Assembly (NCBI GenBank): GCA_963828195.1
Contig: CAWHDT010000005.1
Coordinates: 576,001 to 640,000, forward strand
Source: Candidatus Bathyarchaeota archaeon
Lineage (GTDB): Archaea > Thermoproteota > Bathyarchaeia > Bathyarchaeales > Bathycorpusculaceae
DNA: 64,000 nucleotides
Direction of reading: 5' to 3'
Of this stretch, positions 4,045 to 56,314 are shown in pieces. The notes under the pieces are model-generated. The model searched no databases, was not told the origin of the DNA, and saw only the letters and a list, made by a program, of their open reading frames with translations. Every line of letters starts with the position of its first letter. The first letter of the stretch is position 1. The translations under genes were made by a program, and so were the position numbers.

Positions 4045-4214
4045 GTTGCGACTTTGGGCTGGTGTAAGTTGCGACTTTCCGCCTTGGGTCTTTGCGTTTT
4101 GGGTTGATTTTTTGGTTTGGGTTTGGTTTCTGCTTTTTCGTTGCGTCTTTGGGATGGGCGCTTTGCGACGTTGCATGTTGACGCGATGTTGAGGTTACTG
4201 TCGGTTATGGGCGG
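4045..4214. repeat. Dispersed non-coding repeat copy A (four TTGCGAC-type boxes)
   Basis: Ungapped alignment to 48841-49010, 133/170 identical by manual count. Confidence 0.85.
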
Positions 4215-16240: not shown

Positions 16241-16280
16241 TATGTCGCGACTTTTGCGTGCGCGAAAGTTGCGACTTTTT
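16241..16280. repeat. Partial copy of the dispersed repeat (two boxes)
   Basis: GTCGCGACTTT and GTTGCGACTTT 24 bp apart; spacing is 23 bp in copies A and B. Confidence 0.65.
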
Positions 16281-45016: not shown

Positions 45017-46549
45017 TTGCATTTTGGAAGAGAAAAAAAGATAGTTTTTGCGGTGGTTATGGCGACGGCGTTATGTCTGGTACTTTCGAGTTTTTCGCCG
45101 ATGTCGCATTCTCAAACTAACAGTTTTACTTTACCTTGTACCATCAACACAACGGGCAACGCGTGGGACGGCGACATAGCGTTTGATCTATCCAGTGAAG
45201 CGGTTGATGCTTTGGTAATTATGAACACTAATGGCACCCTGCTGGACGTGCGTCAATCCTCAAGCAGCTACGGACCAACCTATGAAATTGCGCCCGGCAT
45301 TTTATTATTCGAGGGTGAACCTCAAATAAGTGACCCTGACTCTGCCTGGCCAGTTTGGGCTACCCACTTATTGAATTTAACTTCAGGTACAACCGAAGAC
45401 TTTCTCAATGCCCTTAGTGAACATGACATTGAGTACGATCCGGTCAACAACACATTTCTCACTCTGCAAGACTACGTCAGGCAAATCGGAAATAACATGT
45501 TTCTTATGGACAAGATTGTGCAGGTTGACTCAAACGGAAACACGCTCTGGAGCTGGGACACCTACAACTACATTCCCCTCAGCGAAGCTTCCCCGTATAA
45601 CCAGACAGATACGTTGCCTAACGGACAAAACGTGATAGATTTCACCCATGCAAACAGCATTGACTGGGACTACAATAATGGCATTATTTACCTGAATTTG
45701 CGAAACACAAACACCTTCTACGCAATCAACCAGACAACTGGCGACATAATTTGGGCGTGCGGCGAATTCGGCAACTTCACCCTTCTCGGAGCCAACGGCC
45801 AACCGCTGCCTGACGTTAATGGTTTGCCGCCCAGCCTATGGTACAACAGCCACGACGTCAAACAAGTAGCCCCAGACGTATTCACCATGTTTGATAACGA
45901 TTTTGACAATAATTCTAATCCTGACGATTGCCACAGCCAAATGTTAGAAGTGACGCTGAATACAACAAGCATGACAGCTTACGTGAACTGGAGTTGGGAA
46001 GCGCCCACGGCATACTGGAACACCTATGGAGGCGCAACTCTGGTTCTTCCAAACGGAGATTTCATAGCTGATTTTGGGGACCCCTCGCATCAATTGACGC
46101 AAAACTCAGTAAACGGGACAGGTCAATCTTGGGACTTCAATAACACAGGGGCAGTGTTTGTGGAGGTGAATCCCGCTGGGCAGGTTGTGAGAACCTGGAC
46201 GTTCCCAGTCGGGTGGTATGTTTACAGAATTGAAGATGTAACTGGCCCTGTTTCGGCTATTTTCCCAACTTCAACTCCTGTCGCCACTAATCCTACGCCT
46301 GTTGCCACTGCTACGCCCACTCCTGGTGCTTCTCCCTCTCCATCGTCTGTTGCTGCAACTCCAACTCCTGTCGGCACGCCAGCCCCATCTGTTCTACCAA
46401 GTTCAACTCCCCCAATCGCCATTAGTTCTCAAACAATCGTTGCCAGCGTCGCGCTTACAGTGGTTATTGTAGTTGTTGTTGTGTTAGCAGTGGTGTTCTA
46501 TGTGAGAATTAGAAACCGCAAAATTAATGGCGAAACCCAGAAAAATTAA
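45017..46549 (+). CDS. Membrane-anchored arylsulfotransferase (ASST)-family protein, copy 1
   Basis: Signal peptide; EHD, THAN, NLRN, HD, FDN motifs; PT-rich linker plus C-terminal TM. Confidence 0.82.
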   Translation: MHFGREKKIVFAVVMATALCLVLSSFSPMSHSQTNSFTLPCTINTTGNAWDGDIAFDLSSEAVDALVIMNTNGTLLDVRQSSSSYGPTYEIAPGILLFEGEPQISDPDSAWPVWATHLLNLTSGTTEDFLNALSEHDIEYDPVNNTFLTLQDYVRQIGNNMFLMDKIVQVDSNGNTLWSWDTYNYIPLSEASPYNQTDTLPNGQNVIDFTHANSIDWDYNNGIIYLNLRNTNTFYAINQTTGDIIWACGEFGNFTLLGANGQPLPDVNGLPPSLWYNSHDVKQVAPDVFTMFDNDFDNNSNPDDCHSQMLEVTLNTTSMTAYVNWSWEAPTAYWNTYGGATLVLPNGDFIADFGDPSHQLTQNSVNGTGQSWDFNNTGAVFVEVNPAGQVVRTWTFPVGWYVYRIEDVTGPVSAIFPTSTPVATNPTPVATATPTPGASPSPSSVAATPTPVGTPAPSVLPSSTPPIAISSQTIVASVALTVVIVVVVVLAVVFYVRIRNRKINGETQKN

Positions 46550-46640
46550 TTACAATTCTGCTCCCGCGATTCGGACTTTACGTTTTCTCAATTTTACCAA
46601 AAGGCTTTATACGTTCCCAAAGAACTCCAAACGGGGAAAC

Positions 46641-48215
46641 TTGGTTCATTTCAAAAGAAGCAAAAAAACAGTTTATCCAGTAGTGTTAATGACTGCATTA
46701 TGTCTCGCACTATGCAGTTTTCTTCCATTAACCAATTCTCAAACTAGCAGCAGCTTCACTTTACCCTGCACTGTCAACACAACAGGAAACGCGTGGAACG
46801 GCGATATAGCGTTTGATTTAGAATTAAATTCTGGTTTTATGGGTGTAGATGGAACAGGAAATTATTTGGTGGTTATGAACACCAATGGCACTTTGTTAGG
46901 TGTGCGTGAATCTGCCAATAGCTACGGACCTGCCTATAATATTGCTCCTGATACCTTGATGTTTGAGGGTGAGCCTCAAATAGATGACCCGAGCTCTGCT
47001 TGGCCTACTTGGAACACGAATTTCTGGAATTTAACGTCAAACACAATCGAAACGTTTCCTAACGTTCTTAGCGAACATGACATTCAATATGACCCGGTTA
47101 ACAATACTTTTCTTACTCTACAGGACTATGTTAGGCAGGTTGGAAACGACTCGGTTCTTATGGATCGGATTGTAGAAGTTGATCCAAACGGTAATGTTCT
47201 TTGGAGTTGGGATACCTATAATTACATCCCGCTAAGCGAAGTTTCTCCATTCAACGAGACAGATACATTGCCAAACGGGCAAACCGCCATGGATTTAACT
47301 CATGCAAATACTCTTGACTGGGACTACAATAATAGCATTATTTACCTGAATTTGCGGAACACAAACACCTTCTACGCAATCAACCAGACAACTGGCGACA
47401 TAATTTGGGCGTGCGGCGAATTCGGCAACTTCACCCTTCTCGGAGCCAACGGCCAACCGCTGCCTGACGTTAATGGTTTGCCGCCCAGCCTATGGTACCA
47501 CTGCCACGACGTCAAACAAGTAGCCCCAGACGTCTTTCTTATCTTCGACAACGATTACGAAAATAATACTAATCCTGATAATTGCCACAGCCAAATCCTA
47601 GAAGTAACGCTAAACACAACAAGCATGACAGCCTACGTGAACTGGAGTTGGGAAGCCCCCACACAGTACTGGAACGACTATGCAGGCGGCGCTTTGATTC
47701 TTCCCAATGGAGATTTAATCGGCGACTTTGGGGATCCAACGCATCAGTTGCAGCAAAATTCAGTAAACGGGGCAGGTCAATCTTGGAATTTCAACGATAC
47801 CGGTGCCGTGTTTGTAGAGGTGAATCCCGCTGGGCAGGTTGTGAGAACCTGGACGTTCCCAGTCGGGTGGTATGTCTACAGAATTGAAGATATAACTGAT
47901 CCAATTTCTGTTGATGTAGCAACGCCAACTCCGACTTCTGTGGCAGCAGTTCCTGTTGCCTCTGCCACTCCAAATCCTGCAGCTACTGCTACGCCAGTCG
48001 CTACTTCAACTCCCGCCCCTGTTGTTACTCCAACCCCTATCGTCACGTCGGAGCCGCCAACTTCAACGCCGTTAAGCGCCATTAATTCTCAAACAATCGT
48101 TATCAGCGTTGCGCTTGCAATGTCTGTTATAGTGGTTGTTGTGTTGGCCGCGGTGTTTTATGTGAATATAAAGGTTGGCAACCGCAAAATCGATGGGAAA
48201 ATCCAGAACAATTAA
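46641..48215 (+). CDS. Membrane-anchored ASST-family protein, copy 2 (tandem paralog)
   Basis: Same motifs; TTG start at 46641 aligns with the start of copy 1. Confidence 0.82.
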   Translation: MVHFKRSKKTVYPVVLMTALCLALCSFLPLTNSQTSSSFTLPCTVNTTGNAWNGDIAFDLELNSGFMGVDGTGNYLVVMNTNGTLLGVRESANSYGPAYNIAPDTLMFEGEPQIDDPSSAWPTWNTNFWNLTSNTIETFPNVLSEHDIQYDPVNNTFLTLQDYVRQVGNDSVLMDRIVEVDPNGNVLWSWDTYNYIPLSEVSPFNETDTLPNGQTAMDLTHANTLDWDYNNSIIYLNLRNTNTFYAINQTTGDIIWACGEFGNFTLLGANGQPLPDVNGLPPSLWYHCHDVKQVAPDVFLIFDNDYENNTNPDNCHSQILEVTLNTTSMTAYVNWSWEAPTQYWNDYAGGALILPNGDLIGDFGDPTHQLQQNSVNGAGQSWNFNDTGAVFVEVNPAGQVVRTWTFPVGWYVYRIEDITDPISVDVATPTPTSVAAVPVASATPNPAATATPVATSTPAPVVTPTPIVTSEPPTSTPLSAINSQTIVISVALAMSVIVVVVLAAVFYVNIKVGNRKIDGKIQNN

Positions 48216-48447
48216 TTTACATTTTCCTTTCAAGATTTCAAGCCCGCTTTTTACGAAAAATCTGACCTTTTGCGAAAAACTGCGTTAATTGCCTTCTTTA
48301 CAATGGCTTACATCGGAGGGTAGAGGTGGCGACGTTTTGAGTTGAGGCTGCCGGCGACATATCGGGTTATTTAATTGCGTTTATAAGGAAGTTTAGCGTT
48401 GTTATGCAGTTACCTACCGCAATTAATTGTAAAAAGGAGTGATATAT

Positions 48448-48741
48448 ATGGCAGAAAAACCAAATGATGTAATCTTCGTTGGAAACAAACCACCAATGAG
48501 CTATGTGCTCGCCATCATAACGGCATTCTCTTCAGGGACAGAAAAAGAAATAACCCTAAAAGCAAGAGGACAAGCAATAACTACCGCTGTTGACGTTGCA
48601 GAAATCACAAGAAGCCGGTTCCTAAAAGATCTTAAAGTGACAAAAATCGCGATCGGAACAGTCGAGATGCCACCAAGAGAAGGCGAAAACAGGTCCCGCA
48701 TGGTTTCAACGATAGAAATTACTCTCACAAAAGAGCAGTAG
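48448..48741 (+). CDS. albA: DNA/RNA-binding protein Alba
   Basis: VGNKPPMSYVLA, LKARGQAI, VSTIEITL. Confidence 0.97.
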   Translation: MAEKPNDVIFVGNKPPMSYVLAIITAFSSGTEKEITLKARGQAITTAVDVAEITRSRFLKDLKVTKIAIGTVEMPPREGENRSRMVSTIEITLTKEQ

Positions 48742-48840
48742 TTTGACGACGACAATTACCCTGGGAGTTTTAAGCTCTCCAAACTTTTTACATTAAGATT
48801 TTGCATGTTTGAGTTTTTTGTTTTTTGCCTGAATTTTTTA

Positions 48841-49010
48841 GTTGCGACTTTGCCGTGGCGTAAGTTGCGACTTTCGCGGGTGGCTGTTTGTGGTTTGGGC
48901 TGGTTTTTTGGTTTAGGGTTGGTTTCTGCTTTTTGGTTGCGACTTTGGGATGGGCGGATTGCGACTTACAGTGTTGATTTAATGTAGAAATTATTGTCTG
49001 ATATGGGTGG
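48841..49010. repeat. Dispersed non-coding repeat copy B
   Basis: 133/170 identity with 4045-4214, same orientation. Confidence 0.85.
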
Positions 49011-49181
49011 GTTTTACCTCATCCAGCCGTTTTTTGGAAGTTTTCGACCAATTTTTTGGGTGCCAACTAACTTGCCTATTGATTGGAGACCTTTTATCTT
49101 CATCATATTTCACCGCTCAGTATTATTATCTCTGTTTTAAGAAATTAAGTTTCTTCAATTGGCTTTATTAGTAAGAATATT

Positions 49182-50753
49182 TTACATGTAAAATCTGTAT
49201 TGATGTTCGATTTTTTCTTTTGGAGGAATAATTCCGAGTATTTTGCCGACTTTTTCAGCGAAACGTATCGTTATAGGCATGTATGAGCTATAACGTGCAG
49301 TATTCCAATCTAGTCTGGTTAAGGCCAATATTTCATTTGCAAGCTCTCCTGAAGGAGTATCGCCGTTTTGTTCTGTGAATTCTAATGGCTTAGGTACGCG
49401 TGGACCCTGATAACTTCTCACATATGGTACATATCCACCAGTAAATAACATGTTTGAGCCATCCGGCATTTTCAGATATGTTCCTCTTAGTACAGGTTTG
49501 TCGCCATTTCGATAGAAGAATATATCATGCCCTTGAGAAATGGTAATGTAATCTCGCTTTGGAACGTCATGTGAAGCAATGTCAAAGCCTTGAGTTTCAT
49601 CTCTAGCGTATCTTGAACTTTTGTGTATAACTATACGATTGGGAAACTGTTCATCATGATGCTTGCGATAAAGGTTAATTGCGCGGTGAAGTAACTCTGC
49701 AGCACCCTCCTTCGTTAGTCTTGGTTGCCCTTTCTTCTTAGTGTCCCACTGAAAATTGTCGCCTCTAACTACTAATCCTTCGCTAGTATCAGTGAAAACT
49801 TGTGCTAAACTTGCAAACATATTTTTTTCATGTGTTGTTTGATCATAATAAAAAGCTATACCAATAAAGCAGCTACCTGGACTTAATCTACCAAGTTTCC
49901 AAGGAAAGTGATTAGTCTTATAATACAAAGCAACACCCAAATTCCATGCAATCGTTGAAGGATCTTCTTTTCGATGTTTAGCCGACTCAATGGTTGCAAT
50001 TTGCATTACAGTGTTTAACTCTTCTAAAGTGCTTTGCTTGAAAATTTGAACGGGAATTCCTGATTTTATTGCTTCAGCTTTAAGCATTTTTCTGAAATCT
50101 GCTTTTATCACCATATTAATGAAATTTTGAGTATCTTCATCAAGTGGTGCAAGAAGCATTAAATGCGTTTCAATATTCTTTCTTAACTCCTCTGCTTTTG
50201 CTTTCTCTTGCTTAGTTAATCCGCAATGCCTAGATTCTCTACAGTTTTCTTCAATTTCCTTGATTTTATGGCAGATAATTACATCGGGTCTAACTACCCT
50301 GTCACAAATATTACTTATCTTCTTACCATAGAGTTCAGCGGCTTTCCGAATTCTAAGGTTTGGGTTGTCATTTTCAATAACATTTGATACTTCACCACTT
50401 AATATTTTGTCGTTATAATCGGGAGACAGGATGATTCGTGCTCTAAACGCTTTCTCGAATCCTGGAAATACTAGAGTTGTAAAAGGATTTTCTCCAAAAC
50501 TTCGTATCGTTTTTTGATTAAAATATTCAAAGAAATGAGTAAGATCATCTATGCCTTTAGCATTACTTACAAGCCCAACTCTTATCGTCTGAATATCGTT
50601 TGTGGCATCTACTGGTCCATGAATTGTTAACCCTCTCTTTGGGTCAATATCCATTGCCCCATTTCTAAAATAAAGTGGAACCTCTGTCAGATACTTTGCT
50701 TGCAATGTCTCGAGTTTTTGAAAAATTAGTGATTCTTTAATCTGTACAGTCAT
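49182..50753 (-). CDS. Short prokaryotic Argonaute (MID-PIWI, catalytically inactive)
   Basis: DPKRGL..HGP, WNLGVALYYK..PW, CFIGIAF (no catalytic Asp), RIVIHKSS, PVLRGT, LTRLDWN, PITIRFA, YRFYM; no N or PAZ domain. Confidence 0.93.
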   Translation of the reverse strand: MTVQIKESLIFQKLETLQAKYLTEVPLYFRNGAMDIDPKRGLTIHGPVDATNDIQTIRVGLVSNAKGIDDLTHFFEYFNQKTIRSFGENPFTTLVFPGFEKAFRARIILSPDYNDKILSGEVSNVIENDNPNLRIRKAAELYGKKISNICDRVVRPDVIICHKIKEIEENCRESRHCGLTKQEKAKAEELRKNIETHLMLLAPLDEDTQNFINMVIKADFRKMLKAEAIKSGIPVQIFKQSTLEELNTVMQIATIESAKHRKEDPSTIAWNLGVALYYKTNHFPWKLGRLSPGSCFIGIAFYYDQTTHEKNMFASLAQVFTDTSEGLVVRGDNFQWDTKKKGQPRLTKEGAAELLHRAINLYRKHHDEQFPNRIVIHKSSRYARDETQGFDIASHDVPKRDYITISQGHDIFFYRNGDKPVLRGTYLKMPDGSNMLFTGGYVPYVRSYQGPRVPKPLEFTEQNGDTPSGELANEILALTRLDWNTARYSSYMPITIRFAEKVGKILGIIPPKEKIEHQYRFYM

Positions 50754-52203
50754 CAATCTCTTCTTCCTCGACGTCTTCCTCTAACTCTGTTTCTTTTTCA
50801 GCAATTGTTTCGGCTTCATCTTGAGCTGGCTCTTCTTCAGACCAGAGTCTTTCTCGATAGTCTTCTTCAACGCCTCGGTTTACTTGGGCAAATAAGGGTG
50901 TACTCAAAATGGTGGTTGGTATTTCTGCCCCAACTTGCAATTCTATTCTTTCCTTACCCCCTGAAAGCTTGAATGCCCAAAACCGTACGTCATCCAAAAC
51001 AGTGTGGTTTTGCTCGATATTCATCCATCGAGTAGAGTACGAAGACATTGCAAAAGGGGTTACTGGCTGCTGGATACCGTTAGTAGTAAAATGCCAACCT
51101 GGAATAATTTTCAAAAAGAGATTTTTCCCAACTTTAGTAAACGTTGCTTTGCATGATCGATGTGCATAGTATTTGCCAGTCTTTGATTTAGTGACTATTA
51201 TACGTGTAAATTCTCGCTTTCCTATTTTCCACTTTGCAAATCTATTTTCATCGCCGTCTTTTTCTAATGGAAAAAATGTTTTCTTATTTGTCCAATCATA
51301 GACCATTCCAATTTTCTTCATGTGCTCAGTCATTGCCCGATTTAGAAGTTCTATGATTATGGATGATTCTTCTGAATCAACTAATCCTTTGATAGCAACT
51401 CTTTCGGTTGAGGTCCCCTCCAAAATGGCAGATAGTTTCTGTTGAGGATTATTAAGCGGCGTAAACGAGTATACTTGTTGTGTTTGCTCTCTTAGAACAA
51501 AAAGGGGTAAAGAGGTTTCACCTAGCATTGCGAAAACATCAGGGCGTCTTTTGATTTTAGAATATGCAACATTCAGGTACTCAGGCATCTCAATAACTTG
51601 AAACAGATTGGAGGCTATGTTTTCTTCTTGAATATCAGGAAGAACAGAATCAACTGGTTGAGAAGGAATGTTAGATGTCTGGACGGAATCAAGCACTGAT
51701 CTGATAGTTTTTCCAGTAAGTCTTGCCAAGAGCTTCTTTATTTCTTTGGGAAATGCTTGGTCATTACGGAAGTCTAGCCATTTGAGGATTTGTATTGAGG
51801 CAGGAATATCGCAATTTCGCCTAAGTATGGGTATTATTCTAGCCTTTATTCCTGCGGGGTCCTGGTATACTGGTATACTCCGTTCAAGAGTAGTCCAATC
51901 AGATTTTAGCCAGTCAGGTGAGATAATAATTCCTATAAAACGAGACTTTTGTAACGCAGCCTCTATTTTAAGAAGTAAGTTTTCTCCGGGTTCTATATCC
52001 CATGGAGCATAGAAACATTTCAAGAGTCTGCCTTGATATGGTTCTTGTTCAATACGTTTAACAAGTAATTCAGCGAATTCAATATCAGCCGTGTTGTAAG
52101 AAATGAAGATGTCATACTGAATATCAGTGTCGTCTTGCATCCAAGGGTCTTCCTTGGTCATAGTCTGTTGATATATTATATAGCTTTTAGGTTTAATCAT
52201 CAC
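50737..52203 (-). CDS. TIR-APAZ partner of short pAgo
   Basis: YDIFISY...DIEPGE...SPDWLKSDWTTLE (TIR with catalytic Glu); EENIASNLF, PGWHFTTNG (APAZ-like); acidic tail; overlaps pAgo start. Confidence 0.9.
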   Translation of the reverse strand: MMIKPKSYIIYQQTMTKEDPWMQDDTDIQYDIFISYNTADIEFAELLVKRIEQEPYQGRLLKCFYAPWDIEPGENLLLKIEAALQKSRFIGIIISPDWLKSDWTTLERSIPVYQDPAGIKARIIPILRRNCDIPASIQILKWLDFRNDQAFPKEIKKLLARLTGKTIRSVLDSVQTSNIPSQPVDSVLPDIQEENIASNLFQVIEMPEYLNVAYSKIKRRPDVFAMLGETSLPLFVLREQTQQVYSFTPLNNPQQKLSAILEGTSTERVAIKGLVDSEESSIIIELLNRAMTEHMKKIGMVYDWTNKKTFFPLEKDGDENRFAKWKIGKREFTRIIVTKSKTGKYYAHRSCKATFTKVGKNLFLKIIPGWHFTTNGIQQPVTPFAMSSYSTRWMNIEQNHTVLDDVRFWAFKLSGGKERIELQVGAEIPTTILSTPLFAQVNRGVEEDYRERLWSEEEPAQDEAETIAEKETELEEDVEEEEIDDCTD

Positions 52204-52243
52204 TTAATAGAGCGCGACCTCAACTCTAAAAATCACATTCCGG

Positions 52244-52259
52244 ATATTGGCGCGCGCTC
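52244..52259. repeat. Left inverted repeat of the two-gene nuclease module
   Basis: ATATTGGCGCGCGCTC; 14/16 reverse-complement match to 53857-53872. Confidence 0.55.
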
Positions 52260-52364
52260 AAGTGCATCATAGAAGAATCTATTAAAACACTTTAAACAAA
52301 TAGGAATATATGAATGCTTAATAACAGTCCATTTGACAAGTAACACAGACTGAGGGAAGATGGT

Positions 52365-53267
52365 ATGGTTACAAGCGGCAAAGCTAACAAGTGTTATATC
52401 GCTGCATCGGCAAATGACGACCTTCTTTTAAAAATTAAGAAGTATCTTGAAGACCGTGAAATTGAGGTAACCGACGCTTATAGTTTTGAGCTGTCAGAAT
52501 CAAGTTTGATTGTTCAGAATGAAATGAAAATAAAGAAAAGCACATTCTTTGTGGCAATTATATCCTTAGTTGAACCTAACCCTAACGTTTTCTATGAGTT
52601 GGGCATCGCGAGGGCAATGTGTAAGCCGACTTTCCTGATTATTCGTGACAAAGGTAATTTGCCAACGTCGATTGCGGAAATGAACTATGTAAGAGCGTCT
52701 AGTGCTAACTTAGAAACAATATTTTATAGCTTAGACAGGTTCCTCAATGTTGTTGTCGGCAAATCTAAACAAAAGAAAGTGTGTACCTCAGAATATGATA
52801 AGCCCTTGGAAGTCAAAGGACCTATTTACATAGAAGAAACTGAGCAACAGTTTGTTTTGCCAAAAAATGAAGAACAACTTGTTAGAGATATAGAGGCTCT
52901 GTTTGATAGACAAGGTATCGTTTACTTTGTAGAGAAACTAGATAACAGTAGGGTTGATATGTCCCTCTGGGTTGATTCCCTTGAAAAATCGATTGGAAAC
53001 CCAATTCTAGTTGAATTAAAGGCTGGTCGCCTAACAGAAGCAATCATTTGTAATGCTGAACAAAAATTAATCGAATCCATAAAGACTGTTCATGGCCGAG
53101 GCGGTTTGTTAATTTATTCAGATTCGAGCGGCAGGCATTTTAAGCGTTCCAAGTGGAAATCTCCACTAATAATACGTCTAGATTTCAAAGAACTGCTAAA
53201 CAATAATGCCCCTATTGATTTAGTCATTTTGTCAGAACGGAACCAAATTGTACATTCGGGAGAATGA
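52365..53267 (+). CDS. Nucleoside-deoxyribosyltransferase/TIR-like domain fused to a PD-(D/E)XK nuclease-like domain
   Basis: NPNVFYELGIARAMCKP; C-terminal VDMSLW...PILVELK. Confidence 0.75.
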   Translation: MVTSGKANKCYIAASANDDLLLKIKKYLEDREIEVTDAYSFELSESSLIVQNEMKIKKSTFFVAIISLVEPNPNVFYELGIARAMCKPTFLIIRDKGNLPTSIAEMNYVRASSANLETIFYSLDRFLNVVVGKSKQKKVCTSEYDKPLEVKGPIYIEETEQQFVLPKNEEQLVRDIEALFDRQGIVYFVEKLDNSRVDMSLWVDSLEKSIGNPILVELKAGRLTEAIICNAEQKLIESIKTVHGRGGLLIYSDSSGRHFKRSKWKSPLIIRLDFKELLNNNAPIDLVILSERNQIVHSGE

Positions 53268-53816
53268 TTCCCTTGACCCAATATTCACAAAGTAAGATCA
53301 GAAGTTATTTTGACATTTCAGACGCAGCACCCAATGACGCTGGAGGAAGGACATTAAAGGGTAGAACACTTGAAGACCTGATTTACTATATTTTTGAGAG
53401 GGTTCCAGGTATTCCTATCATCGAAAGAAACCTACAGAACGCTTTCCAAACTGAAGAAATTGATCTTGCTTTCTGGAACGAAAAAACGGTTAAGGGTCTA
53501 ATATTTCCTGCCTAATCTTATAATAGTTGAATGTAAAAACTGGTCAAGTTCAGTCGATACTGACGCAGTTTCCTATTTTAAGAACAAAATTGAAGAAAGA
53601 GGTTTAGATTTTGGAGTGCTTGTAGCAGCGAACGGAATCACAGGCGATAGAGAAGTTCTCTCAAGAGCTAATTTCATAATTGCCACAGCATTGGCTCACG
53701 GAATCCGCATAATCGTTTTAACACGAGGTGAAATTGAAACCCTCAGAACTACAGCAGATCTAGTATTATTGATAAAGAAGAAATTATGCAAATTAATTCT
53801 TACTCAATCAGTATAA
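53264..53816 (+). pseudogene. Mrr-like restriction endonuclease with one +1 frameshift near 53500
   Basis: KGRTLEDL...EEIDL, then shifted YFLPNLIIVECKNWS...GVLVAANGITG; span is 184 codons plus 1 nt. Confidence 0.8.
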
Positions 53817-53856
53817 AAGTACTCCGAAACATTACTGAAAAAATGGGGAAGCTGAA

Positions 53857-53872
53857 GAGCGCGCGTCAACAT
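53857..53872. repeat. Right inverted repeat of the two-gene nuclease module
   Basis: GAGCGCGCGTCAACAT. Confidence 0.55.
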
Positions 53873-53942
53873 AAGTCTCATGAAATTGACTTCATACAGG
53901 AAAACAAAATCCTTAAAATTTCCTGAAACTCCCTTGGGGCAT

Positions 53943-54968
53943 CTAAGATGTTAAATTTTCATTAAATTTCTTCAAGTAATCGACTGTTATCTGTTCAACG
54001 ATCTTTGCATAGTCAATTTTAAGGTTGCTTAACCGAAGAAAACGAATTCCAGAGGCGTTTGCTTTTCGTATAGCTGCCGGTGTCGCTTTTCTAAAAACTA
54101 TCATACCATATGTATTCTTGGCTAAATAGCTAGTAATTTTGTCTTTTTCACGACTCTTTGCCCATTCAATTTTTTTAAGGAAAGAGTTTACCGTGTAACC
54201 TGTTACTGGAAACCGAGTGTAAACATCTATAGCAAGGTATTTTTTTTCTATTGTGTTTTCTCTGAAATGGTAAAAAATATCAAACGTCATACCGCCAGTG
54301 ATCTTTAACGTTTCTCGTTTTCTTGGTCTTATCGCGTCGTCATAGCTGAGCATGACGTCAATAGGGTACAAGTTCATTATTAGTTCGTGGACTATTTTTA
54401 GGACTGAAAACTCGGCTAAATCTTTAACAATAATTGATTGCTCATCCAGCCCCATTTTCCAAGCATGAGATTTAGGAACGTAAAAGTCGGTATTTCCTAA
54501 GTGCACTTTCTCAATAAATCCCAGTTTCTCTAATCGCCTCGTTGTGTATTCAACAACATTTCCTGGTGCGGGGACCAAGCGTTTCAGATCATACAATGAG
54601 AAGTAGAAAACATCTTTGTTTAAACTCAAAAATTTTTCAAGGAGGCGCTTTTGAAACTGGGTCAAAAGACTGCCCATTTTGTTTTTTACTTCTTTCTCAG
54701 GTTTGTTTTTTAAAAATAACAGCTTGCCTTGTCTACCAAAAATAGTTGGCTTTTGTTCGTTTGTTGCTTTAAAAGCTTCAATGCACCTGCAATCGCCAGA
54801 GGTTAGGAACTTAATGCTTTTTACTATTGTATAGTTGCCGCAACTACCTTCAAGCAAACTCTTAAGCCTAGCAGTTGTACACATACCTTCTTTCTGCACA
54901 AGGTTTACAGCGGCCTCTCTTCTTCCCTTACAAGCAAGTTCACAAGGACAACTAATAGGATTTCCCAT
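53943..54968 (-). CDS. Winged-helix plus restriction-endonuclease-fold protein (putative)
   Basis: TTRRLEKLGFIEKV (wHTH); TFDIF...LAIDVY...AIRKANASGIRFL (REase-like, canonical Lys absent). Confidence 0.65.
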   Translation of the reverse strand: MGNPISCPCELACKGRREAAVNLVQKEGMCTTARLKSLLEGSCGNYTIVKSIKFLTSGDCRCIEAFKATNEQKPTIFGRQGKLLFLKNKPEKEVKNKMGSLLTQFQKRLLEKFLSLNKDVFYFSLYDLKRLVPAPGNVVEYTTRRLEKLGFIEKVHLGNTDFYVPKSHAWKMGLDEQSIIVKDLAEFSVLKIVHELIMNLYPIDVMLSYDDAIRPRKRETLKITGGMTFDIFYHFRENTIEKKYLAIDVYTRFPVTGYTVNSFLKKIEWAKSREKDKITSYLAKNTYGMIVFRKATPAAIRKANASGIRFLRLSNLKIDYAKIVEQITVDYLKKFNENLTS

Positions 54969-55035
54969 TAATCTTAACCGTTAATTTGTTCAACAGTCGA
55001 GTTATTAATAACCATTCCCTAGAAATTAAGTGATT

Positions 55036-55152
55036 GTAATCTAGTAATAAGAAAGGAAATATAGTAAAATGAAATTATTGAAAATTATTTGATATTCTAT
55101 TGAATTACTAGTTTCCTCATTACTAATCAGATTACTAGTAAATTACTAGATT
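55036..55152. repeat. AT-rich cluster of ATTACTA(G) direct and inverted repeats
   Basis: ATTACTA at 55104, 55119, 55131 and 55142; inverted TAGTAAT at 55042. Confidence 0.55.
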
Positions 55153-55420
55153 TAAGGTTATGTCGGGAATTTATGTCAACAACTAATTGAACGAGTTTAG
55201 CTATTGTATACTTAGTCAAGATTGCAAGGATCCACTTGCAGCCTCTACCACATGAACCCAACATGGAGTTGGAGAACCGCGCGCTGGCAAGCTGCAAGGC
55301 AATCTTGATTTTTGTAGTCTTTGACTCGTACTTTTAGAAAAAAAAGACAGGCTGGAGATATTGCGATATTTCCATAATGAAATTCGATTTTCCAGCTTAA
55401 CTTTTTGTGTTTTGGTTTGT

Positions 55421-55448
55421 TTTTTTGTTGCGACTTTTCGGATGGGCG
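55421..55448. repeat. Partial copy of the dispersed repeat at the right edge of the island
   Basis: TTTTTTGTTGCGACTTTTCGGATGGGCG versus TTTTGGTTGCGACTTTGGGATGGGCG (48931-48956). Confidence 0.7.
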
Positions 55449-55468
55449 CTGGGGAAGCTGCGGCGTGG

Positions 55469-56314
55469 CTATTTTTTCAGTTTTGCTTGGACTTTTTCGA
55501 CGATTTGCATGAAGGCTTTTGCCGCCGCCGAATTCTTCTGCGCCACGATGAACGGTTCGCCCCTGTCGGAGTCCACGCCGATTTTCGGGTCAATCGGGAT
55601 GCTGCCGAGGAAAGCCACGTCCATCTCTTTAGCCATTTTTTCTCCTCCGCCTGACTCGAAAATCTCTGTTTTCGTTCCGCAGTGAGGGCAGACAAAGCCG
55701 CTCATGTTTTCGACAACGCCGATGATCGGCATGTTTAGGCGTTCGGCGAAGGTGATGGCTTTCTTGACCACGCTGCTTGAGAGTCCAGTAGGCATGGTGA
55801 CGATGACGACGCCGTCTATGTCAGGCAGCAGCTGCGCGATGCTGAGCGGCTCATCGCCCGTGCCAGGCGGCAAATCAATGAATAGAAAATCCAGTTCACC
55901 CCAAACAATGTCTACGAGAAACTGCTTTATCGCCTTCATCTTCAGCGGTCCACGCCAAATCGTCGGCGCTTCCTCAGGCAAAAAGAAGTCAATCGACATA
56001 ACCCTCATCCCCAGCGGACCGTCAACTGGAAAAGCCCCGGGAGGACCATACTTAACCTGCTGCCCCTCCAACCCCAGAAGCTTAGGCACGCTTGGCCCAT
56101 GAATGTCGGCGTCTAAAACCCCAACCTTGAACCCCTTCGCAGCAAAAGCCGTTGCAAGGTTAACGGTTACGGTGCTTTTTCCAACCCCGCCTTTGCCGCT
56201 GATAACCGCGATTTTATGTTTGATCTTGCTCATTCGCTCTTTCAGTTTATTTTGCTCTTCTGACTGCTGTTTCTTGTATTCTTCAAGCTGAGCCATATTT
56301 CTCTCTAAAGCCAT
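55469..56314 (-). CDS. Mrp/NBP35 (ApbC) Fe-S carrier ATPase
   Basis: SGKGGVGKST, DADIHGPS, DLPPGTGD, ENMSGFVCPHC. Confidence 0.96.
   Translation of the reverse strand: MALERNMAQLEEYKKQQSEEQNKLKERMSKIKHKIAVISGKGGVGKSTVTVNLATAFAAKGFKVGVLDADIHGPSVPKLLGLEGQQVKYGPPGAFPVDGPLGMRVMSIDFFLPEEAPTIWRGPLKMKAIKQFLVDIVWGELDFLFIDLPPGTGDEPLSIAQLLPDIDGVVIVTMPTGLSSSVVKKAITFAERLNMPIIGVVENMSGFVCPHCGTKTEIFESGGGEKMAKEMDVAFLGSIPIDPKIGVDSDRGEPFIVAQKNSAAAKAFMQIVEKVQAKLKK

Follow-up and report, generated by a model that had tools for sequence, protein, structure and literature searches.

Where, among the defence systems built around short Argonautes, does a TIR-armed gene pair from an uncultured archaeon belong? The stretch of DNA considered here (the window: 64,000 nucleotides, nt, from contig 5 of a Bathyarchaeota genome of 2.83 Mb that is 96% complete) carries at 49182..52203, on the reverse strand, two overlapping genes, one for a protein in which a TIR domain is joined to an APAZ domain and one for a short prokaryotic Argonaute (pAgo). 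In the accessible text of Koopal et al. (PMC9097488) the S2A short pAgos are those of SPARTA (short pAgo with TIR-APAZ), and the S2B ones are accompanied mainly by DUF4365- or DHS-like-APAZ proteins; in that of Ryazansky et al., TIR-APAZ proteins make up group IIa, group IIb being diverse. Is the archaeal pair, then, simply SPARTA in another host? We think it likely that it is a two-gene abortive-defence module with a guide-dependent NAD(P)+-hydrolysing (NADase) output, carried on a horizontally acquired island in Bathyarchaeia, and that it comes from an archaeal subfamily, with 78 TIR-APAZ clusters, of the S2B type of TIR-APAZ system, which occurs widely in bacteria, rather than from canonical S2A SPARTA.

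The partner gene (50737..52203) is an open reading frame (ORF) of 488 amino acids (aa) with a GTG start, and the pAgo gene downstream of it (49182..50756) encodes 524 aa from a TTG that is followed directly by an ATG. The two genes share 20 nt (50737..50756), or 17 nt should translation of the pAgo begin at its ATG, an overlap that suggests translational coupling. The first 20–25 residues of the partner are perhaps not translated, because its relatives mostly have 458–478 aa and because residues 1–24 of its structural model have a predicted local distance difference test score (pLDDT) below 50; the true start may be an ATG at codon 2, 15 or 22. A first-pass annotation of this DNA had described two overlapping genes, a TIR domain with its catalytic glutamate fused to an APAZ-like region, and a pAgo reduced to MID and PIWI domains, all in an archaeal host, and this description has stood up well. 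The ORF list gives exactly the two genes, and the motifs that were cited are all present: EDPSTIAWN..ALYYK (aa 264–280), GIAFY (299–303) and AQVF..EG.V.RG (318–332) in the pAgo, and EENIASNLF (about aa 193–201) at the start of APAZ in the partner.

The TIR domain (about aa 28–166; 51706..52122, reverse strand) is recognised by Pfam as TIR_2 (aa 32–159, E = 9.1e-20) and by a profile made from 29 TIR_2 proteins that have no relation to Argonautes (aa 22–166, 92 bits), and an AlphaFold2 model built on an alignment of relatives (pLDDT 83.7 for the whole TIR-APAZ protein) places strands and helices at aa 30–163 with a pLDDT of 83–95. The predicted catalytic glutamate, E107 (codon 51883..51885, reverse strand), is invariant in 46 of 46 aligned TIR-APAZ proteins. 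Alignment through the same profile pairs it with E77 of locus L093, which matches the solved SPARTA chains of 8ifk over the full length (1028 and 1174 bits), and in Crt-SPARTA the mutation E77A abolishes NADase activity (Koopal et al., PMC9097488, accessible text). In a sequence search of the PDB, the window TIR found AbTIR, MyD88 and similar chains, not the TIR of SPARTA.

Between TIR and APAZ lies a linker (aa 167–189; 51637..51705, reverse strand) modelled with low confidence (pLDDT 47–51 in the blocks covering aa 171–190, and below 50 at aa 175–183), which is possibly equivalent to the bridging region of SPARTA. The APAZ domain itself (about aa 190–452; 50848..51636, reverse strand) is evident in several ways. 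A profile of S2B-type APAZ domains gives an envelope of aa 179–453 (360 bits); the PADLOC PNTD1-PNTD2 (APAZ) models match the partner, SIR2-PNTD best (4.1e-37) and REase-PNTD next to it (8.6e-34); and the PDB chains found by sequence are 9om4_A, an HNH-APAZ (7.5e-6), and 9qbl_A, a DUF4365-APAZ (7.5e-5), with no SPARTA chain matched by the partner at E ≤ 0.01. In Foldseek comparisons, the top matches of the TIR-APAZ model are the solved SPARTA TIR-APAZ chains (E 1e-19, at least 450 columns), and its APAZ part superposes on the APAZ of the nuclease-armed SPARDA and SPARHA systems with a template-modelling (TM) score, by target, of 0.74–0.83 and a root-mean-square deviation of 3.2–6.6 Å, so the APAZ fold for which the partner was checked is indeed present. 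The protein ends in an acidic tail (aa 453–488; 50740..50847, reverse strand) of 36 residues, 53% of them Asp or Glu. According to the accessible text of Finocchio et al. (PMC10899771), a tail of this kind is a conserved feature of APAZ proteins in both S2A and S2B, and that of BabSPARTA is autoinhibitory.

The pAgo matches PADLOC pAgo_I over its whole length (E = 5.1e-129) and has no Pfam match at E ≤ 0.01. Residues 19–521 align with a solved SPARDA pAgo (E = 4.5e-57), the solved short pAgos having 484 aa, and there are no N or PAZ domains. In its AlphaFold2 model (made in the same way; pLDDT 80.9, predicted TM score 0.81) the top Foldseek matches are all short pAgos; those of SPARDA, SPARTA and SPARHA align with it along some 520 columns (E 3e-39 to 1e-31; TM score by query 0.78–0.83). 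K226, Q237, Y279, K280, K379, Y520 and the C-terminal M524 are invariant in 22 aligned relatives, and appear to be residues of the MID-pocket type together with a fixed C-terminus. A300 and the invariant K379 stand at what we take to be the first and third acidic positions of an active PIWI domain (the GxD and RDG motifs). The short pAgos identified by Koopal et al. (PMC9097488, accessible text) are without the DEDX tetrad, and in SPARTA the carboxylate of the C-terminal residue helps to hold a metal at the 5'-phosphate of the guide (PMC10474274, accessible text).

What separates the window pair from SPARTA? As S2A anchors we used the three strong matches from a search of 401 genomes of a Bacteroidota sample with the PADLOC model PDLC02421, one of which equals the solved Crt-SPARTA chains (8ifk). 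On the two PADLOC TIR-PNTD models (PDLC02403 and PDLC02421) the window partner scores 1e-13 and 7.8e-14, as against 1e-114 to 1e-144 for the three anchors. By phmmer, the window TIR gives 34–126 bits against all 36 of the S2B-type TIR partners introduced below and at most 3.8 against the S2A anchors, and the window APAZ 50–115 bits against the same 36 and at most 5.9 against the anchors. Among solved structures the pAgo is closest by sequence to those of SPARDA and SPARHA (194–197 bits), with SPARTA at 161–172 and SPARSA at 94; the pAgos of two further loci, one from each bacterial TIR clade, score 218–294 bits with SPARHA and SPARDA and 152–167 with SPARTA. By similarity, then, pAgo and APAZ both appear nearer to S2B than to S2A representatives. 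It had been suspected from motifs that the pair was not of the canonical SPARTA lineage and that its pAgo and APAZ resembled the clade normally paired with nucleases, and these scores bear out both suspicions. A profile of S2B-type APAZ domains does detect the S2A APAZ, nearly over its full length (E 1e-13 to 9e-9), and therefore the two are homologous, but far apart.

For the TIR domains, a control for evolutionary rate was provided by the 29 TIR_2 domains, taken from Argonaute-unrelated proteins of 121 Bacteroidota genomes. On the profile made from these, the S2A TIRs score 31–61 bits, well short of the 92 of the window TIR. On a profile of the close family of the window TIR, S2B-type TIRs score 69–179 bits (median 114) and unrelated TIRs 4–97 (median 39), the two ranges overlapping slightly, while S2A TIRs score 1.3–4.1. 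Conversely, an S2A TIR profile gives a median of 14.3 bits (maximum 45) with unrelated TIRs, 0.0 with the close family and 0.9 with the 36 S2B-type partners; the window TIR, at 3.5 bits, is below the median for unrelated TIRs. By these scores the two Argonaute-linked types of TIR resemble each other less than either of them resembles stand-alone TIRs. A quick TIR tree (145 columns) likewise had the S2A TIRs among 21 unrelated ones, and all 50 of 50 S2B-type TIRs on the opposite side with 8 unrelated ones (support 82). Quite probably, then, the window TIR and that of SPARTA belong to separate TIR lineages, and we favour two separate recruitments of TIR domains by short-pAgo systems, the long branch leading to S2A keeping this short of proof.

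How widely is such a system spread? In the close family, the partner has 78 full-length homologues (clusters at 90% identity) that are 34–91% identical to it; the next scores are no better than E 9e-4. For the pAgo, 68 homologues lie at 41–80% identity, and a broad band at 32–37% comes next. The family is rare, being found in one of 25 genomes of the genus and, with the partner as query, in one of 401 sampled genomes of the phylum, where two more genomes have a TIR-APAZ protein of 34% identity. A scan of metagenomes with a single protein query returned a sole locus (L109), with the same gene order, the same 20-nt overlap and proteins 74–80% identical to those of the window. The similarity between L109 and the window is limited to 49174–52119, and the two-gene module is therefore the conserved unit. 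Furthermore, 26 of the 78 partner homologues share the size of their longest contig with a close pAgo homologue (n = 68; manual comparison of tables), as would be expected if the two were encoded on one contig; pairing within the close family is read from the window, L109 and these matching sizes.

Beyond the close family, we scanned species-representative genomes with a pAgo alignment and classified, with Pfam and PADLOC, the upstream partner at the best 80 of 561 relatives (29–42% identity), which we call the context loci. TIR partners are the most frequent (36 loci), followed by Schlafen/AlbA_2 (17), DUF4365 (6), APAZ with an unrecognised N-terminus (6) and SIR2 with HATPase_c_4 (5), the other 10 loci being at contig ends or without a clear ORF. 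Going by record titles, four of the 36 TIR loci are archaeal; most are bacterial, from Planctomycetota, Verrucomicrobiota, Acidobacteriota, Cyanobacteria, Myxococcota, Bacteroidota and others. Judged by its sequence, the window pair is thus one of a large set of S2B-type TIR-APAZ systems that spans both bacteria and archaea. Among 11 other S2B-type TIR partners put to PADLOC, all 11 had REase- or SIR2-PNTD as best model, and just three matched TIR-PNTD at E ≤ 1e-12. Over these 11 and the window, the two TIR-PNTD models of PADLOC v2 fit the S2A type only, so that automated PADLOC labels for S2B-type TIR-APAZ systems may mislead.

The context loci hold some further variants. In three Acidobacteriota loci (L007, L025 and L043) a helix-turn-helix domain (HTH_31 or HTH_3) is fused ahead of TIR-APAZ. 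The 17 Schlafen/AlbA_2-APAZ partners (L010, L013, L024, L028, L033, L035–L039, L047, L054, L057, L058, L060, L061 and L067) are all archaeal by record title, and in L061 a single ORF of 982 aa runs from Schlafen through APAZ to pAgo. Schlafen domains in pAgo operons are mentioned briefly in the accessible text of Ryazansky 2018, and a 2026 preprint on Schlafen-linked pAgos has, in its accessible part, another architecture, a fused SLFN-Ago-GHKL. In the Poribacteria loci L069, L072, L077, L078 and L084, the partner of the short pAgo (S2-type) is some 925 aa long, with SIR2_2 and HATPase_c_4 ahead of APAZ, the type that PADLOC calls 'SIR2-Kinase-PNTD'.

Can phylogeny settle the matter? The pAgo tree (74 rows and 532 columns; LG+C20 with posterior mean site frequencies, careful search) was rooted on four S1 rows, and the APAZ tree (70 rows) was likewise carefully searched. 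The window family is a firm clade in both (100/99 in each). In both trees, too, the three S2A anchors form a 100/100 clade without it, whose stem in the pAgo tree measures 1.9 substitutions per site; nesting within S2A, the outcome that would have made this a known system in a new host, was looked for and not seen. In the APAZ tree, where the S2A stem is 3.0 substitutions per site, 24 bacterial TIR rows fall in one group (90/87), and a Thermoplasmata TIR-APAZ protein (L020) is a weak sister of the window clade (80/87); the nearest APAZ and TIR relatives of the window are TIR-APAZ proteins, L020 and L016. S2B was not recovered as one clade against S2A in either tree. Earlier quick trees had grouped the window family with archaeal Schlafen loci at weak support, a grouping not recovered with support in the careful pAgo tree. 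Approximately unbiased (AU) tests did not reject a clade of the window family with S2A (p-AU 0.437 for pAgo, 0.239 for APAZ), nor a single clade of all 42 S2B-type TIR-APAZ rows in the APAZ tree (p-AU 0.294). Since these three tests reject nothing, we make no claim on branching order or on the number of effector exchanges. Mapped on the free trees, the TIR label takes 4–6 changes, and the well-supported branches force as few as one (APAZ) or two (pAgo).

Several points count against the reading given at the outset. The split that places the window family as the first S2 branch has support of 38/32 in a poorly resolved S2 backbone, and a sister position to S2A is compatible with the AU tests just given. 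Low similarity to S2A could come partly from fast evolution, to which the long S2A stems bear witness, rather than from separate origin. S2A is represented by three anchors from a sample of one phylum, the outgroup by four S1 rows, and the context loci are the top 80 of 561 matches. Structure does not separate the lineages, the pAgo model giving a TM score (by query) of 0.83 to Crt-SPARTA and 0.80 to SPARDA; as a discriminator between S2A and S2B it was dropped, the model fitting both equally. The absence of the DEDX tetrad is presumed from the expected positions of two PIWI motifs. Finally, the TIR domain has weak ThsB-type matches in PADLOC (7.2e-6), given which a signalling product may be possible.

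With these points in mind, how should the alternatives be rated? That the pair is ordinary S2A SPARTA in an archaeal host would account for the shared architecture, the shared position of the catalytic glutamate and the full-length SPARTA matches that lead the Foldseek list, and the AU tests permit it; we rate it as very improbable, because the anchors form a fully supported clade that excludes the window, the TIR-PNTD models differ by so much between window and anchors, phmmer finds next to no likeness in TIR or APAZ, no SPARTA TIR-APAZ chain is found by sequence in the PDB, and the S2A TIR profile barely registers the window TIR. The first-pass annotation had gone the other way, proposing that a nuclease-type system (DUF4365, Mrr or HNH joined to APAZ, with its pAgo) exchanged its nuclease for a TIR domain in this archaeal lineage, independently of all other TIR-APAZ proteins. 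The affinity of the APAZ domain for the SIR2- and REase-PNTD models and for the solved HNH- and DUF4365-APAZ chains agrees with this, as do the separate, long-stemmed window clade and the 4–6 label changes on the free trees. It fares poorly in the face of the context loci: the same TIR-APAZ combination accompanies 36 of the 80 pAgos, mostly in bacteria, and the window TIR is specifically like all 36 of these (with the close-family profile medians of 114 and 39 bits already given); the nearest relatives in APAZ and TIR, L020 and L016, are already TIR-APAZ proteins; one clade of the 42 S2B-type rows is not rejected by the AU test; and well-supported branches can be satisfied with one or two changes. 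An independent swap thus seems improbable to us. Nor is the novelty that it implied supported, since the accessible text of a preprint by Prostova et al. (bioRxiv 10.1101/2023.06.08.544223) had already placed some TIR effectors, as a subgroup, in S2B. What the window family adds is a new subfamily, from archaea, of a type of system recognised bioinformatically and experimentally uncharacterised in the searched literature: no experimental study of S2B-type or archaeal TIR-APAZ proteins was found in the full-text literature, most subscription papers being outside its coverage.

Two other alternatives concern function rather than descent. The TIR domain might make a signalling nucleotide (a cyclic ADP-ribose isomer, as in Thoeris) or have some other activity, the module being then a sensor for a separate effector. 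The weak ThsB-type matches would fit, and so would the generic TIR_2 type, nearer to stand-alone bacterial TIRs than to that of SPARTA, and the presence of a second TIR-like or Mrr-like gene next to the operon. We think this a little less probable even than the independent swap: the ORF list, Pfam and PADLOC revealed no ThsA-like or other nucleotide-sensing effector among the ORFs of the island; L109 has just the two genes in common with the window; and, in the accessible text of Koopal et al. (PMC9097488), the APAZ protein is the sole protein specifically associated with short pAgos and the characterised Argonaute-linked TIR is an NAD(P)+ hydrolase. Least probable of all is that the pair no longer has a function and persists as a decaying or silent remnant. 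An apparently broken restriction-endonuclease-like gene does occur in the same island (53264–53515 and 53616–53816), but both ORFs of the pair are intact and of full length relative to their 78 and 68 homologues, relatives keep the catalytic glutamate, the MID-type residues and exactly the same C-terminus, and the gene overlap is kept in L109, at protein identities of 74–80%.

If the pair is, as we prefer, an S2B-type TIR-APAZ defence module, its mechanism may be pictured by homology with SPARTA, SPARDA and SPARHA. The MID-PIWI pAgo, presumably without catalytic activity, would form a heterodimer with its partner through the APAZ domain and take up small guides with a 5'-phosphate, RNA being the most likely kind. 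Once such a guide has paired with DNA of an invader, oligomerisation would follow, bringing TIR domains together, and hydrolysis of NAD(P)+ at the site centred on E107 would bring the infected cell to a halt. The acidic tail of the partner would probably damp the binding of guide and target, and thus act as a brake on activation. SPARDA and SPARHA are activated through filament assembly, according to the accessible parts of the reports on them, and one may speculate, with a good deal of doubt, that the S2B-type chassis drives its TIR domains by filaments induced by guide and target, and not by the SPARTA tetramer. If that were so, Argonaute-controlled TIR NADases would have two or more origins, distinct both in TIR lineage and in mode of assembly, and the family would be a first case of Argonaute-triggered immunity by NAD+ depletion native to Bathyarchaeia and Asgard-related archaea. 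Even apart from this speculation, a SPARTA-like, TIR-armed Argonaute module is placed in uncultured archaea of soil and sediment, in a family of 78 clusters that is nonetheless rare, and the difference between the S2B-type and SPARTA TIR domains makes the group well suited to finding out how a single sensor chassis can drive effectors of separate origin. Cultured carriers of the S2B-type TIR group exist, for example Tolypothrix (L015).

How did the operon come to be where it is? The host is archaeal, as had been supposed: an Alba gene (Pfam) is nearby at 48439–48741, and the three close partner homologues with names come from Bathyarchaeota, Bathyarchaeia and Hodarchaeota. In 23 of 24 orthologous Mrp/ParA loci of the same genus (L141–L164), Alba lies tail to tail beside Mrp, at a distance of 61–184 nt in 20 of them and about 590–600 nt in three, the 24th locus stopping at a contig end. 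In the window Alba (which ends at 48741) and Mrp/ParA (which ends at 55469) are 6.7 kb apart, and empty-site sequence matches the window until about 48800–48840 on the left and from about 55440–55468 on the right. From the adjacency in relatives, the gap in the window and the mapped junctions, it follows that the operon is inside an insertion of about 6.7 kb (48800..55468). GC content is 0.37–0.41 at 48–56 kb of the window and about 0.46 in the flanks, and no integrase or transposase was recognised among the genes of the insertion. The island was probably acquired horizontally. Immediately upstream of the operon is a divergent intergenic region of 161 nt (52204..52364), in which, on inspection, a T-rich stretch that ends about 21 nt ahead of the GTG looks TATA-like.

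The remaining genes of the island are less easily read. The divergent gene at 52365–53267 (forward strand) encodes 300 aa with an N-terminus that resembles Nuc_deoxyrib_tr or TIR domains below threshold (Pfam 2e-4; PADLOC TIR effector 6e-3), and the domains seen in its ESM-Atlas look-alikes, which are leads only, are Mrr_cat and TIR_2 (score 0.97); the island may have in it a second gene for defence. Two short ORFs in different frames follow on the same strand (53264–53515 and 53616–53816), which have no Pfam or PADLOC family matches and are probably halves of the frameshift-broken gene referred to above. The gene at 53943–54968 (reverse strand) encodes a 341-aa protein, again with no Pfam or PADLOC match, which tblastn finds in the window's genome alone among 30 same-genus Mrp loci.

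The motif GTTGCGACTT occurs in clusters with a spacing of 22–24 nt (4045–4149, 16244–16277, 48841–48967 and 55427–55436), of which the third is just within the left junction of the island and the last is a single copy near the right junction. There are 12 matches in the window at no more than one mismatch, compared with 5.4 expected, a number reached by one of 100 shuffles. A direct repeat ending in GTTGCGACTT is present on both sides of the island, but the idea that it marks an attachment site or the ends of the island was rejected, since clusters of the motif also occur at 4.0 kb and 16.2 kb. Outside the island, on the Alba side, two tandem paralogues on the forward strand (45017–46549 and 46527–48215) have arylsulfotransferase (ASST) domains (7.7e-19 and 1.2e-21), and both show Thr/Pro-rich linkers and a hydrophobic C-terminal stretch, like anchored archaeal surface proteins.

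How, finally, does the window pair compare with systems already known? With Thoeris it has little in common, ThsB being a stand-alone TIR protein that works with a ThsA effector, whereas the window TIR is fused to APAZ. SPARSA (SIR2-APAZ with an S1 pAgo; 8in8/8jkz) resembles it in joining a short pAgo to what would, in the window, likewise be an NADase effector, but is distant in the sequence of its pAgo, and its group served as our outgroup; no phmmer match was found between the window APAZ and S1 partners. The archaeal Schlafen/AlbA_2-APAZ loci share with the window family mostly archaeal hosts and an S2-type pAgo with APAZ, and differ in having SLFN_AlbA_2 in place of TIR at the N-terminus. 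SPARDA (DUF4365/DREN-APAZ; 9qbp, 9qbl, 9jsb and 9vx1) and SPARHA (HNH-APAZ; 9om4) come out on top when the window pAgo is compared with PDB sequences, are the sole such matches of its APAZ, and share the APAZ fold, but have a nuclease as effector, not a TIR; in the pAgo tree the DUF4365 loci form a 100/100 clade of their own (including one locus with an N-terminus unrecognised by Pfam), away from the window family. SPARTA (S2A, from Crenotalea, Maribacter and Bacillales; 8ifk, 8fex, 8qlo and others) shares an operon of two genes in which TIR-APAZ precedes a MID-PIWI pAgo, the order of domains, the position of the glutamate (E77 corresponding to E107), the acidic tail of the partner and the fold over the full length; it differs in the minimal phmmer likeness of its TIR and APAZ domains, in PADLOC family models that do at least 100 orders of magnitude worse on the window, in the lineage of its TIR as judged by profile cross-scores, and in that the host of the window pair is archaeal. 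The closest counterpart is to be found in the survey of Prostova et al. (bioRxiv 10.1101/2023.06.08.544223), which drew on the non-redundant NCBI proteins of bacteria and archaea that have RefSeq genome identifiers; in its accessible text S2B 'includes ... a subgroup of TIR effectors', exchange of effectors is suggested, and the make-up of that subgroup (TIR, S2B-type APAZ and S2B-type pAgo) is the same as that of the window family and of the 36 TIR loci described here.

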